DNA from: an uncultured bacterium
Lineage (GTDB): Bacteria > SAR324 > NAC60-12
DNA: 28,885 nt
Assembly: GCA_964010765.1 (NCBI GenBank)
Contig: CAXGMD010000043.1
Location: forward strand, 1-28,885
Reading direction: 5' to 3'
Below, one piece after another: positions 584 to 12,365 of this stretch. The position numbers and the translations under genes were made by a program. The notes under the pieces were generated by a model that made no database searches, was not told the origin of the DNA, and saw only the letters and a program-made list of their open reading frames with translations. Each line of letters begins with the position of its first letter. The stretch's first letter is position 1.

Positions 584-2584
584 ATGACACAGGTGTCCAC
601 TGTCCAGCGTATGCGGGAACTCACTGAGTTGATCCATGGGCACAACGCACGCTACTATCTGAGTACTCCGACGGTTAGTGATGAGAGTTTCGATGCTCTG
701 GTAAGGGAATTGGCGCAACTGGAGGCCAGTTATCCAGAATTGCGTGATCCTTCCTCTCCCCTGCTGCGTATCACCGCAACCCCACTGAGTAATTTTCCTT
801 CGCGTTCCCATCGAATTCCAATGCTCAGCCTGAGCAATGCCTATTCTCTTGAAGAAGTTGTAAATTGGGACACTAGCGTACGACGCCTGCTGGAGGTACC
901 CCAAGTAGAGTATGTCGGCGAATTGAAGATCGATGGACTGGCGGTATCGCTGATTTATGAGCGAGGCCGTCTGGAAGCCGGAGTCACCAGAGGGGATGGC
1001 CAAGTTGGCGATGAGATCACTCCGAACCTGCTGACAATTGCCAATCTGCCATTACAGTTGCCTGAGCCAATCAATCTGGAAGTCCGTGGAGAGGTCTATC
1101 TGCCCCATCTCAGTTTTGAAAAACTCAACGCTCGAAAGCAAGCAGAGGGAGAACCTCTCTTCAAAAATCCACGTAACGCAGCTGCAGGCACACTGCGGCT
1201 GTTGGATACAGCAGAAGTTCGTCGTCGTCGGTTGCAAATCCTGACTTATGCAGTTGCTCAGGGCTCAAATAAAACTTCTCACTATGCCAATCTTCAGTGG
1301 CTAGGAGAGCTAGGTTTCCCAATCAATCCAGCGACACGCCTCTTACCCGACTGGGATTCGGTCAAGAACTTTCTGGAACATTGGGAGAGCGAGCGTCATC
1401 ACCTCGATTACGATGTGGATGGGATTGTGCTGAAGGCGAATTCATTGGAAGACCAGGCAGCTCTCGGAATGACTGCCAAATCTCCACGCTGGGCTGTCGC
1501 CTTCAAGTTTACTGCAGAACAAGCAGTTTCCACACTGCGTGAGATTGAAATCGGGGTAGGCCGAACAGGAGTTCTCACTCCAGTGGCGCTCCTGGATCCA
1601 GTAGAATTGAATGGGACCACGGTGTCGCGAGCAACCCTGCACAATTATGATCAGATTGAGCGACTTCAACTCCGCTTGGGAGATCAGGTACTGGTGGAGA
1701 AGGGGGGAGAAATCATTCCAAAAATCGTGGCTGTGCACCTGCCTGCTCCTGTGAGTGAATCTGGGCCAATTGACCCTCCAACAGCCTGTCCAGCATGTGA
1801 CAGCCTAGCAATTCAGTACCCAGGTGAGATCGACTGGCGTTGTCCAAATCCAGAATGTCCCGCACAGCTACAAGAACGGTTACTACACTTTGTCTCTCGT
1901 CGAGCAATGGACATTGATGCCGTCGGTCCAGCACTACTGGATCAACTACTGAATCGCCAATTGGTATGGAGTGCTGCTGATCTTTACCGATTACAGATCG
2001 AGGACTTGACACCCTTGGAAAGGATGGGACTCAAGTCTGCACAGAATGTGGTGCTGGCCATCGACCAATCAAGACAAAGACCCCTCCCTCGCTTTTTGCA
2101 CGCGCTCGGTATCCCGCATGTGGGTGAAAAGACTGCCCAATTGCTGGCACGCAACTACGGTTCATTGGAGGCTCTTCAACAAGCAGATCAGGAAGAATTG
2201 GCGGCAATCCATGAGATTGGCCCAGTGATCGCTGAAAGTGTGGCCCGCTACTTCCGTAGTACAGAAACCAAAGCACTGCTTCAGGAATTGTGGGACGCTG
2301 GGGTGAGACCACAGGAACTACAGGTTCAGCAGGCTCCTGATTCACCACTAAAAGGGAAAACCGTGGTGCTTACAGGAGCACTCTCGGAGCCAAGAGATGT
2401 TTGGCAACAGCGCCTCGAAGACGCAGGAGCCCGGATTTCTGGAAGTGTTTCTAAGAAAACAGATTATGTGTTAGCTGGAGAAAAAGCAGGTTCCAAGCTG
2501 GAGAAAGCTGAGAAGTTGAAAGTCTCTGTGATCAGTGAGGATCAAGCTCGGAGTTGGTTGAGTGGTTCATCCAATAACGAATGA
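584..2584 (+). CDS. ligA: NAD-dependent DNA ligase LigA
   Basis: ELKIDG adenylation motif, [24 protein letters not shown]-fold, C4 zinc finger (CPAC...CPNPEC), HhH repeats, and BRCT ([24 protein letters not shown]). Confidence 0.98.
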
Positions 2585-3402
2585 TAGCCTTCCTGATAAG
2601 TGGGATAGCGCAGCAACAGTCCTGTAGATTGGAGACGCTGATTTGAAATTCTACGCTCGAGGAAAGGGACGTCTGCCTCCGGCTCAGCAAGCAACTCATG
2701 ATTTTCTGGTGACAAGACTGTTGGACGTTGTTTCGCACACCACTGAGCCACTCGTAATGAGGATAGTGGTTGATGATCGACGGCATTGATGCAGGAAGGC
2801 AGTTCTGGCTGCAGAATCAGCAGGTGTATCAACCGTGCGAGATCTTCCACATGAATACGGTGAGTAGGCTGATGTGGAGACGTAGGCATCACTTGGTCAT
2901 TGCGCAGTCGTTGCCAGAGATTACGTTTGGGTCCGTAGATACCTCCAGGACGAACCACTTGTAAATCGAACGCCTCTCCTAGCAGATCTTCTGTTTGTTT
3001 TCGTAGCTCGCCGGAAAGAGAGTCCGGCTCTTCTCTAGTGTCCTCTGTCCAAACTCCTGCCCGTTTGGGATATATTCCTGTTGTGGAAACGTAGAGTAAG
3101 CGCGAACAAGCTGGCCGATGCTCACGCATCCAGGCAGACCATTGCTGTAAATGATTTCGGTTGGCTTCCAAATCACGGATGGGTGGGATGGTCAAGATGA
3201 GCGTTGCCGATTGCACTGGCAGAACTTGCCAACTCGAAGTCTGAGTCCAGTCAAAGGGTAAGACCGGCAGCGGCTGTTGTGTGAGAATCGCAGGATATGA
3301 CGAGGGACGACAGGTCCCCCAGGATTGTGGTGACCAAGGAACCAACTGCGCTAGGGTAGAGCCCAGATAACCTAGGCCAAGAATACCAACAGTTGGCTCC
3401 AT
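2542..3402 (-). CDS. NAD(P)-dependent epimerase/dehydratase family atypical SDR (YeeZ-like)
   Basis: GLGYLG Rossmann motif, [32 protein letters not shown] and YPTYQEG. Its 3' end overlaps ligA by 43 bp. Confidence 0.85.
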
Positions 3403-10983: not shown

Positions 10984-12365
10984 TGTTGCCCACAGCAACA
11001 ATTCCAACTGCTACTCGAATCGGCTATTCCGTTGCAGAGACAGGTATCAATGCCGTTGAGACACTACTACGTCTCTACCTGCTGATCTTCTATACAGATG
11101 CGGTTGGGCTAGCGCCGGGTTGGGCTGGATTGGCGGTTGCGCTGGGCCTTTGTTGGGATGCGGTGACCGATCCTCTGATGGGCTATCTCTCTGACCGTTG
11201 GTACAGTCGTTTGGGAGGCAGGCGTCCTTTTCTGCTGCTGGGTGGCTTACTTCTCGCCATCAGTGTCTATCTTCTCTTTTCTCCACCATTTCTCGAAACT
11301 ACGAAAGCAAAGTTCGCATATCTGCTGACGGGGTTTCTCTTTCTCAACACGGCGATGACGATTCTGTCGGTGCCTCACATGGCAATGGCGACAGAGATGA
11401 CTGTGGAACCAGATGAACGTTCCGCCCTGTTTGCAATTCGTTTTGCTTGTGGAAACATTGGGGCAATCCTTGGCGCTGGATTACCAGGATTTTTTGCAAG
11501 TGGTGAGAGTTTACAGCCAATAGATCAACAGCTTGCCATGAATGAAATGAGCATTTGGCTTGCCGTGATTGTGTGCGGTACTGCAGGTTGTGCCTGGGTA
11601 GCTACAGCCAAGCAGTCGATGCATCGTGTAGTCACTCACGTTGAATTGAAGCAGAGTCTGATTCAGGTATGGCGTAACCCGACTTTCCGACCGTTATTGT
11701 TAGCCTATATCGTGGCTACCTTTGGGGTGGCCATCAATGGAGCTCTGGCACTTTACTACTACCGCTATCGGTTGTTGTTGGAAGAGCAGGAAGTGCAGCT
11801 CATTCTAGTAGTCTTCATGTTGGTACTGACCCTCTCTTTGGTAGGTTGGGTACTACTTTCCAGAAAGCTGGGAAAGCTACGACCTCTCCTGCTAGGAGTC
11901 TCACTGCTGGGCTTTTTCAGCTGTGTGACCTATCCTTTCTTTCCGCCAAGTAATCTCTGGGTACCATTGTTCGTGGGAGGTGTGCTGTTGGGTAGCTGTG
12001 TGGGATCGGTGGTATTGCTGGATTCCTTGCTGACAGATGTGATTGACTATGACCAAGTCCGCACCGGTGTACAACGATCAGGAGTCTACTTTGGAGTGTG
12101 GCGACTAGGCGCCAAAACCGCACGTGCCCTCGCTGTTGCAGGCGCTGGTTTGTTGCTGGAAGTCATTGGGTTTGTGCCCAACACCGTACAGTCGGCAGAA
12201 GTGTCAGAAGCACTGGCCTGGCTGTTTGGTCCAGGAGTTGGGGTGTTTCTCGTATTGGCTGCCTTGCTGCTGTGGCCATATCGTTTTGATGACGCTAAAC
12301 AACGTCAGGTTCGACGGATTTTGCAACGCAAAGAGCTACTTGCAGCACAGGCGTCGCAGGTGTAG
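10983..12365 (+). CDS. MFS transporter, glycoside-pentoside-hexuronide (GPH/MelB-like) family
   Basis: LLIFYTDAVGL, WDAVTDPLMGYLSDR, GRRPFLL, and DVIDYDQVRTGVQRSGVYFG. About 12 hydrophobic segments. The GTG start overlaps the photolyase TAG. Confidence 0.9.
   Translation: MLPTATIPTATRIGYSVAETGINAVETLLRLYLLIFYTDAVGLAPGWAGLAVALGLCWDAVTDPLMGYLSDRWYSRLGGRRPFLLLGGLLLAISVYLLFSPPFLETTKAKFAYLLTGFLFLNTAMTILSVPHMAMATEMTVEPDERSALFAIRFACGNIGAILGAGLPGFFASGESLQPIDQQLAMNEMSIWLAVIVCGTAGCAWVATAKQSMHRVVTHVELKQSLIQVWRNPTFRPLLLAYIVATFGVAINGALALYYYRYRLLLEEQEVQLILVVFMLVLTLSLVGWVLLSRKLGKLRPLLLGVSLLGFFSCVTYPFFPPSNLWVPLFVGGVLLGSCVGSVVLLDSLLTDVIDYDQVRTGVQRSGVYFGVWRLGAKTARALAVAGAGLLLEVIGFVPNTVQSAEVSEALAWLFGPGVGVFLVLAALLLWPYRFDDAKQRQVRRILQRKELLAAQASQV

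Follow-up and report, generated by a model that had tools for sequence, protein, structure and literature searches.

Can a bacterium switch on protection against sunlight by passing a blue-light signal into sigma-54-dependent transcription? This question is raised by a locus at positions 2542 to 12365 of a 28,885-nt stretch of DNA (contig CAXGMD010000043.1; the whole stretch is called the window) from an uncultured marine SAR324 bacterium, whose genome of 3.86 Mb is 92% complete. In this locus, a LOV-type histidine kinase and a single-domain response regulator are encoded divergently from a sigma-54 activator that is followed by a photolyase, and a sequence-only reading of the DNA had proposed that light may feed a phosphorelay into sigma-54 transcription of photoprotection genes. 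We find that the kinase and the activator form a conserved unit, and comparative genomics supports a link between this unit and photoprotection genes. All seven genes named in the sequence-only reading were recovered in place by the list of open reading frames (ORFs) and a Pfam scan, and the locus is composed as follows.

2542 to 3402, minus strand: Rossmann-type protein, NAD-dependent epimerase/dehydratase-like, 286 amino acids (aa), last gene in the kinase arm (PDB sequence match)
3408 to 5021, minus strand: glutamate-synthase-like flavin mononucleotide (FMN) protein with a hydrophobic N-terminus, 537 aa (Pfam PF01645, E 1.2e-79)
5052 to 6653, minus strand: PAS-LOV-HisKA sensor histidine kinase, 533 aa (Pfam, motifs)
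6716 to 7090, minus strand: single-domain response regulator (REC only), 124 aa (PF00072, E 2.9e-22)
7091 to 7458, no strand: divergent AT-rich intergenic gap, 368 bp, candidate control region (sequence, alignment over four genera)
7459 to 9477, plus strand: REC-AAA+ sigma-54 activator (bacterial enhancer-binding protein), 672 aa (Pfam, motifs)
8749 to 9474, plus strand: C-terminal domain of the activator, about 240 aa (without Pfam match)
9592 to 10983, plus strand: class-I-type cyclobutane pyrimidine dimer (CPD) photolyase, 463 aa, second gene in the activator operon (Pfam)
10983 to 12365, plus strand: GPH/MFS_2 cation symporter, 460 aa, whose start overlaps the photolyase stop (PF13347, E 4.8e-78; TIGR00792, E 2.3e-57)

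Its recurrence in relatives makes the arrangement at this locus more than a chance one. We searched 41 genomes, namely the window's own (G000) and 40 relatives, and label genomes G, loci L, genera g, and families f. Full matches to the activator including its C-terminal domain were found in 15 of the 41 genomes, all from family f1 (f2, 0/16), and 20 of the loci carrying this activator family were compared in detail. At all nine loci where the activator is at least 52% identical (L002 to L010; genera g1, g2, g3, g7, and g9), a kinase ortholog of 44 to 96% identity lies directly beside it, and this is the case at none of the 11 loci with activator paralogs of 40 to 51% identity. Conversely, full-length kinase orthologs occur only in genomes with an orthologous activator. 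Loci from public records repeat the pattern and add one g2 species (L029) and one g7 genome (L032). The synteny check that the sequence-only reading had suggested has a divided outcome: the kinase-activator core holds at 9/9 loci in five genera, the linkage of the photolyase holds in g1 and g2 only, and the outer arms do not extend beyond g1. As an observation in its own right, the REC-AAA+-C-domain family is present in several full-length copies in some genomes of g7, g9, and g3 (five in G014, four each in G016 and G023, two in G010); nine of the ten extra copies compared are 40 to 47% identical and sit beside unrelated genes or other kinases, and one G016 copy reaches 51%. The module of G016 has itself undergone a rearrangement: its kinase gene now lies downstream of the activator, and its REC gene is convergent (L031:6300-6662 and 8688-9478).

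What the module is attached to changes between genera while staying within one stress theme, and no other comparative argument speaks as strongly for a photoprotection regulon. A photolyase gene follows the activator in six of the nine loci (g1 and g2), after 115 bp without a terminator-like site in the window and after about 35 and about 8 bp in g2. The operon cargo in g1 comprises the photolyase and the MFS gene, the g2 operon runs activator, photolyase, DUF4345, amine oxidase-like flavoprotein, and ferrochelatase, and the g3 operon (G010) runs activator, amine oxidase (433 aa), DUF1365, cyclopropane fatty acid (CFA) synthase (CMAS), and DUF2878, with a lipocalin gene after the kinase. According to passages of PMC3546557, the conserved core of the ChrR-sigmaE singlet-oxygen regulon consists of a photolyase homologue, a CFA-synthase homologue, and the operon RSP1091-RSP1087, with RSP1091 being 430 residues long, and passages of PMC5241685 describe cryptochrome/photolyase operons and a CFA synthase that are induced by blue light in Vibrio cholerae. 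The comparison supports a picture in which one module has been attached, genus by genus, to different genes from a set that, elsewhere, is induced by light or by singlet oxygen. RSP1091 to RSP1088 are presumably the family-by-family counterparts of the G010 genes.

It could be argued that these genes are merely neighbors by descent, and that the photolyase, transporter, and FMN/short-chain dehydrogenase (SDR) genes are regulated independently of the two-component system. Such a scenario would fit the restriction of the FMN, epimerase-like, and MFS genes to g1 loci, as well as the lack of a common photoprotection theme among the neighbors of other copies of a palindrome described below. However, the kinase-activator core survives both the rearrangement in G016 and a two-sided gene turnover in five genera, the gap between activator and photolyase shrinks to about 35 and 8 bp in g2, and the three cargos, different as they are, all come from a single known stress regulon, so that we consider this explanation highly improbable.

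Domain content identifies the photolyase as class-I-type (FAD_binding_7 PF03441, E 3.9e-80; DNA_photolyase PF00875, E 5.1e-45), with subtype and substrate not being fixed by the family models: the match to the NCBIfam model of the 8-hydroxy-5-deazaflavin (8-HDF) type has an E of 6.8e-118 under the cut-off, and the equivalog cut-offs are missed for both the E. coli type (394.5 vs 884.6 bits) and the 8-HDF type (325.5 vs 506). Across the 41 genomes, FAD_binding_7 is present in 15 (g1 8/8, g2 2/2, plus g4, g5, g7, and g9; f2 0/16), a distribution that makes the linkage of photolyase and module specific to g1 and g2. Another cryptochrome/photolyase gene of the window's genome, its second, lies on C5 with bipA on one side, men genes on the other, and no regulators nearby.

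Turning to the input of the system, the claim of a soluble PAS-LOV kinase with an intact photoactive Cys motif was borne out by Pfam, by the motif VLGRNCRFLQGPETN, and by hydropathy. The protein is built from an N-terminal PAS_4 domain (residues 18-116, E 5.6e-8), a LOV domain (PAS_9 in Pfam), a coiled-coil linker, HisKA (PF00512, E 3.4e-10), and HATPase_c (PF02518, E 1.8e-23), and it is taken to be soluble because no 19-residue stretch exceeds a Kyte-Doolittle (KD) value of 1.26. The Cys motif stands in the context VLGRNCRFLQG, and in an alignment of 10 kinase orthologs with overall identities of 46 to 96%, G[RHK]NCRFLQG is found in nine. Two further motifs, LLNYAVDGRPFWN (NY...FWN) and YVGIQSDIT (GIQ), are nearly invariant among the aligned orthologs, and we take their Asn/Gln positions to be those that contact the flavin. 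The best NCBIfam match of residues 145-282 is the YtvA blue-light photoreceptor family (YtvA_fam, E 2.2e-48, under the full-length cut-off). A blue-light photocycle of the LOV domain would be expected from these canonical motifs. On the transmitter side, the H-box SHDLKSP is part of a segment, SHDLKSPFHS, that is invariant in 10/10 orthologs, and Pfam assigned neither HisKA_2 nor HWE family to the kinase.

The N-terminal PAS domain is kept in 9/10 aligned orthologs, and within residues 1-135 of the kinase C65, C100, H101, and H128 are nearly invariant (motifs NYLxIC and EYPCHS), which hints at cofactor binding or redox sensing. Separately, the g7 orthologs without LOV (L009:5341-6573, minus strand; L032:1394-2470, minus strand; G023:C583:3967-4725) retain the N-terminal PAS, HisKA, and HATPase_c and still adjoin the REC-only gene and the activator. 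Could the main signal then be oxygen, redox state, or a metabolite sensed through the N-terminal PAS, with LOV as an accessory in some lineages and a regulon directed at oxidative or membrane stress? Both the Cys/His residues of PAS_4 in 9/10 orthologs and the g7 kinases that have kept PAS_4 and HisKA would agree with this, as would the g3-type cargo, since CFA synthase, amine oxidase, and DUF1365 genes respond to singlet oxygen and organic peroxide in Rhodobacter in passages of PMC3546557. Against it, four of five genera have retained the LOV Cys motif, at kinase identities of 46-96%, the G016 kinase lacks PAS_4 and has LOV, and the cargo in g1 and g2 is a photolyase, which is a light-dependent enzyme. 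We therefore regard a primarily redox-driven system as quite unlikely.

Which of the two REC domains would receive the phosphate from the LOV kinase? The REC-only protein has the conserved residues of a receiver (DD, D57, S86, and K107), and its gene is present in 8/9 orthologous loci, being missing in G009. Two g2 species, G009 and L029, keep kinase and activator side by side without it. Helix alpha1 of REC is the main contact helix for the DHp domain of the kinase. In the activator REC, this helix carries L[IV]KGW in 7/7 kinase-linked activators and in 0/10 paralogs from the same alignment, and on the kinase side the DHp helix I301-S311 is invariant in 10/10 orthologs. Together with the two g2 species lacking the REC-only gene, this conservation of alpha1 and DHp favors a scheme in which the activator is the conserved phosphoacceptor and the small REC protein has an accessory role.

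These observations also bear on a LovK/LovR-like organization, in which the kinase would signal mainly via the REC-only protein, for example with a non-transcriptional output, while the activator would be fed by another kinase or be constitutive and the photolyase would ride on a housekeeping transcript. LOV kinases are known to pair with single-domain regulators, as the sequence-only reading pointed out and the abstract of bioRxiv 10.1101/641647 describes, and here a single-domain REC gene lies directly upstream of the kinase in 8/9 orthologous loci; moreover, sigma-70-like hexamers matching at 10/12 positions are found upstream of the activator at 7412-7440, and others stand at 7335-7364. 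Conversely, G009 and L029 have lost the REC-only gene and still have kinase and activator adjacent, alpha1 of the activator REC is conserved only beside a kinase ortholog (7/7 vs 0/10), no second kinase gene is present at the locus, and sigma-70-like matches in the region are fewer than in shuffled sequences (6 vs 10.3). An output mainly through the small REC protein thus seems unlikely to us.

The activator, to which the preferred reading assigns the phosphate, is atypical, in agreement with the sequence-only reading: GAFTGA is intact, HTH_8 is missing, and an extra C-terminal domain is present. Pfam recognizes REC, Sigma54_activat (PF00158, E 7.1e-67), and AAA_lid, and the motifs comprise D53, T81, and K104 in REC, a coiled-coil linker, the Walker A sequence GETGTGKE, GAFTGA, and the Walker B sequence DEIG. 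Residues G224, F226, T227, G228, and A229 are invariant in 17/17 homologs. Residues 3-413 match TIGR01818 (E 3.4e-100), no NCBIfam model is matched at its cut-off, and the family matches end by residue ~413. Pfam finds no Fis-type helix-turn-helix (HTH_8) in this protein and does find HTH_8 in an ordinary activator nearby in L008; in its place, the protein has about 270 extra residues. Their domain, marked by the motifs KGLPDTYxFNLLY, LRYAQ, and DGLEAxRxCLCSK, matches nothing in Pfam at E<=10 and no sequence in the PDB. It is rare: a profile search of 1.84 billion representative proteins recovered only 18 clusters at E<=1e-3, mostly of 597-690 aa. Ten of them score below 1e-30 (among these one protein of 299 aa and one of 131 aa), and in 11 the matching region forms the C-terminus of a 597-737-aa protein. 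A pattern scan of GTDB species genomes located the domain at 26 loci, of which 24 have titles naming SAR324, Deltaproteobacteria, or an uncultured or unclassified bacterium and two are gammaproteobacterial.

The two gammaproteobacterial loci belong to a Pseudomonadales metagenome-assembled genome (MAG) and to Litoribrevibacter euphylliae (L046:6164-8227 and L047:6744-8645), the sole carriers seen outside SAR324. In both, genes for Hpt proteins and a REC-HD regulator lie downstream of the activator-family gene. The upstream neighbors differ: in the Pseudomonadales MAG they are pspA and DUF2170, in Litoribrevibacter a hybrid kinase and CheR.

An AlphaFold2 model of the C-terminal domain, built from the 17-homolog alignment, has a predicted local distance difference test score (pLDDT) of 90 and a predicted template modeling score (pTM) of 0.87, and it shows an alpha/beta half and a seven-helix half. 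Structure searches with the whole domain gave no clear match (Foldseek best E 0.09, VIA best Z 3.2). For the helical half alone (pLDDT 74), the best Foldseek E was 2.8, and the best VIA match, 2rkh_A (a PadR/AphA-like winged helix; Z 5.1, root-mean-square deviation 3.2, 73 residues), lies within the noise range; further winged-helix proteins, at Z 3-4.5, are under the noise level of the tool. Weak fold matches of this kind do not show that the fold is new. In an Atlas feature search, the matches were clusters without names and some plasmid Rep initiators, at 0.91-0.93, which is under the reliable level and serves as a lead only. It is tempting to speculate, from its position in the protein, that the domain may bind DNA.

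If the activator acts on the divergent gap, candidate sites should lie within its 368 bp, which can be aligned between genera in a few blocks only. Three elements emerged.

7209 to 7224, plus strand: element A, TGGTTTCTACCATGCA, a candidate sigma-54 -24/-12 element of the form GG-N10-GC that faces the activator-photolyase-MFS operon; predicted start at ~7235
7263 to 7278, minus strand: element B, TGGCACAGGGTATGTA, a candidate -24/-12-like element of the form TGGCAY-N5-NTG(T/A) that faces the REC-kinase arm; predicted start at ~7252
7139 to 7152, no strand: AGATAAATCTATTA, a degenerate copy of the palindrome TGAYAAATTTRTCA with three mismatches, candidate regulator-binding site (orthologous loci)

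For element A, the GG, the GC, and their spacing are kept across four diverged lineages (g1; G001; G020; G009 and L029), with a varying spacer (CTACC, CGCCT, CCGAA, CTGAA). Element B is kept in g1, G001, G020, G010, G014, L032, and G016 and is missing in G009 and L029, both of which are without the REC gene. The palindrome TGAYAAATTTRTCA is well conserved in the orthologous loci of g2, g3, g7, and g9, with 0-1 mismatches in G014, L032, G010, and G020, 2-3 in G016, G009, and L029, and 3-4 in g1, and its distance is 62-77 bp to B or 67-117 bp to A. In five relatives' genomes it is enriched over a reversed-pattern control (14/3, 22/0, 2/0, 15/5, and 3/0). In the rearranged G016 locus, the palindrome still precedes both the activator and the kinase.

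As a key to a wider regulon, the palindrome was rejected: ORFs of 80 aa or more enclose seven of the 12 compared sites (two or more of these ORFs being small and maybe spurious), and the neighbors of the remaining sites, betaine ABC/RibD_C/UbiA, CysG/TauE, DCC1-like, NDH-2/NhaA, FolE/PTPS, and CbiX, show no clear photoprotection theme. A photolyase-proximal promoter within 9478-9591 was likewise discarded, its GG...GC pair having N14 spacing and being lost in the sister species. Genome-wide, TGGCAY-N5-TTGC occurs at one intergenic site, and the 74 candidates from a looser promoter scan were too mixed to give a clear consensus for this genome or a promoter model. TGT at -12 is also seen in some of the other intergenic candidates, which shows only that such variants exist.

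Two further elements of this type lie elsewhere. The best -24/-12 match in the window is AGGCACATCCCTTGCT at 14008-14023 on the minus strand (10/12 positions), 114 bp upstream of a 95-aa ORF (13607-13894) with a signal-peptide-like N-terminus. In G014 (g7), an intergenic element of ~150-200 nt is present in at least five copies (L009:1229-1545, L009:2498-2814, L009:5067-5383 on the minus strand, L013:8532-8848 on the minus strand, and L019:17932-18248), at three loci that each have an activator-family gene. It contains the sigma-54-like GGGCGCATAGCTTGCT, with ~70 nt conserved upstream and ~60 nt downstream, and may be a multi-copy sigma-54-dependent small RNA or a repeat element; a small RNA would presumably be of the Qrr/LuxO-like kind.

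Are the two arms represented in RNA libraries? Eighteen RNA-library runs each contain 44 to 64% of the sampled words of 5000-11000, and we mapped contigs from four runs of four studies (run labels X1, X2, X4, and X15 below). The contigs cover every gene of 2542-12365, and in two runs nearly all pieces are at least 99% identical. Bridged junctions are FMN protein-kinase (X2 4633-5522, X1 4898-5462), kinase-REC, activator-photolyase (X1 8527-9623, X15 9028-9963, X2 8746-11252), and photolyase-MFS (the X2 contig 8746-11252). This is compatible with two divergent operons, and DNA carry-over is possible. Transcript ends were not taken from the contigs, and neither contig ends nor the uncovered stretch count as evidence, because the ends disagree between runs (X1 stops at 7231 and restarts at 7321, X2 stops at 7089 and restarts at 7348, and X4 runs to 7322) and contigs give no starts or strands.

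The proposed circuit would work as follows. Judging from its canonical LOV motifs, the cytoplasmic PAS-LOV kinase would bind flavin, and blue light would alter its autokinase activity. Its main phosphoacceptor would be the REC domain of the divergent sigma-54 activator, as suggested by their strict co-occurrence and co-conserved contact helices, and the REC-only protein may be a second acceptor, a phosphate sink, or a LovR-like modulator. The phosphorylated activator might then assemble on the intergenic region via its C-terminal domain and remodel the sigma-54 holoenzyme at the non-canonical -24/-12 elements A and B, leading to more transcription of both the activator-photolyase-MFS operon and the REC-kinase arm. 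The sigma factor itself is encoded in the window's genome (rpoN; Sigma54_DBD, E 1.1e-59, at G000:C65), where strong Sigma54_activat genes number only four, the other three being on C20, C8, and C2. Overall, light would drive a positive feedback loop with CPD photolyase as its product, and with other photo-oxidative-stress enzymes as products in sister genera, and the module would hold in the SAR324 lineage the place of ChrR-sigmaE or LitR/CarH in proteobacteria.

Several observations weigh against such a circuit. On the input side, the g7 kinase orthologs (G014, L032, and G023) are without the entire LOV domain, so that the module can work without blue-light input and is not an obligate light sensor. 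On the output side, G016 has the module and its photolyase on another contig, no photolyase was found in G010, which also has the module, g4 and g5 carry photolyases without the module, and the FMN/SDR and MFS arms, which the sequence-only reading had counted as parts of the regulon, are limited to g1. As to the promoters, element A reads TGGTTT instead of TGGCAC and is missing in g3 and g7, element B carries a T at -12 where C is expected and in G016 no longer faces a REC gene, and the two elements have an unusual face-to-face layout in which ~17 nt separate the predicted starts. The 27 A-like and 55 B-like sites genome-wide (3.86 Mb) make both elements rare, with patterns that were defined after the sequences were seen. 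In the window, TGGCAC-N5-TTGC with up to two mismatches is not enriched (28 matches vs 32.9 expected), and no -24/-12 element was found in the 115-bp gap before the photolyase; of the divergent arms around one promoter, the layout with its 368-bp gap stands and the canonical -24/-12 promoter does not. Furthermore, the structure searches did not demonstrate a DNA-binding fold for the C-terminal domain, and the RNA-library contigs prove neither transcription, a single transcript, the strand, nor light dependence.

Taken together, the idea of a light-fed phosphorelay into sigma-54 transcription of photoprotection genes gains from the conserved kinase-activator pair, from rpoN, and from a photolyase that is operonic in two genera, and it loses from the lack of a canonical -24/-12 element and from the g7 kinases without LOV. 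On balance, we consider a LOV-to-sigma-54 photoprotection circuit with the proposed mechanism plausible and lean slightly toward it. A bolder version, in which a LOV kinase drives a sigma-54 activator with a new DNA-binding fold, this activator acts on face-to-face, non-canonical -24/-12 promoters, and the resulting light-triggered positive feedback loop has taken over master control of the photo-oxidative stress regulon from ChrR-sigmaE or LitR in SAR324, an abundant ocean phylum, appears conceivable, and we hold it only tentatively and with some doubt.

The outer genes of the locus and one neighbor complete the description. The term SDR, used for 2542-3402 in the sequence-only reading, applies in the extended sense only: the protein matches the PDB sequences 3gpi_A ("NAD-dependent epimerase/dehydratase", E 3.8e-12) and 3ius_A (E 8.3e-14), and nothing in Pfam at E<=0.001, Epimerase reaching merely E 0.043. 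The hydropathy of the FMN protein (3408-5021) over 19 residues peaks at a KD value of 2.19 at residue 12. Farther downstream, 15514-18954 on the plus strand of the window encodes a 1146-aa protein with weak matches to GlnD nucleotidyltransferase and HD domains (TIGR01693, E 1.2e-32, far under the cut-off), which resembles an unusually long GlnD-like protein.

How does the locus compare with known light-response systems? In full-text literature outside subscription journals, we found no description of a LOV kinase feeding a sigma-54 activator, including for SAR324 with photolyase or LOV, and the sequence-only reading, which did not recognize this wiring as described, holds within that coverage. 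The locus suggests an undescribed bacterial route to switching on sun protection. Transcription by sigma-54 is strictly dependent on its activator and silent without a signal. If the circuit is real, coupling sigma-54 to a LOV kinase would make an all-or-none light switch for DNA repair, the same photo-oxidative-stress gene set would have been captured by a third, unrelated regulator class, and the enhancer-binding protein family would have gained a new output domain. Within SAR324, which is a major marine group without cultured members, the module would then be a testable marker of light-exposed vs dark lineages. As a compact and soluble unit, the kinase-activator pair might also serve as an optogenetic part.

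With NtrC/DctD/LuxO-type activators, the activator shares REC, a coiled-coil linker, and AAA+ with GAFTGA, and it differs from them in lacking HTH_8. LovK-LovR and other alphaproteobacterial LOV kinase systems likewise place a cytoplasmic LOV kinase beside a single-domain response regulator; however, their kinases are of the HWE/HisKA_2 type and feed PhyR-EcfG partner switching (abstract of bioRxiv 10.1101/641647), whereas the kinase here is HisKA (PF00512) with a sigma-54 activator as its conserved partner. Because of this kinase type, we do not regard the locus as a LovK/LovR-type system. The cargo is like that of ChrR-sigmaE and LitR/CarH (photolyase, CFA-synthase homologue, and an RSP1091-1087-like operon with an amine oxidase-sized protein, DUF1365, CMAS, and DUF2878), but the regulators there are an extracytoplasmic function (ECF) sigma/anti-sigma pair or a MerR-type repressor, and here they are a two-component kinase and a sigma-54 activator. 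A short LOV protein acting through class II LitR is described in the abstract of PMC9758184. Cupin_7 has five matches in the window's genome, and the sole one examined, a 176-aa single-domain ChrR-cupin on C16, has SDR and hydrolase genes around it and is not close to a sigma factor gene.

The closest working analogue, going by passages of PMC6932827, is BphP-AlgB of Pseudomonas aeruginosa. BphP is likewise a photoreceptor histidine kinase of the soluble kind, and in light it phosphorylates AlgB, an NtrC-family regulator with GAFTGA. Signaling from a photoreceptor kinase to an NtrC-family regulator thus has a precedent, which tempers the novelty of the circuit. The two systems differ in chromophore, output domain, targets, and gene arrangement: the sensor is a biliverdin bacteriophytochrome responding to far-red light there and a flavin LOV protein here, AlgB ends in a helix-turn-helix and the activator here in an unrelated domain of ~240 aa, the BphP-AlgB genes do not form a divergent pair with a REC-only protein as at this locus, and the output is the repression of biofilm and virulence genes in the one case and photolyase in the other.

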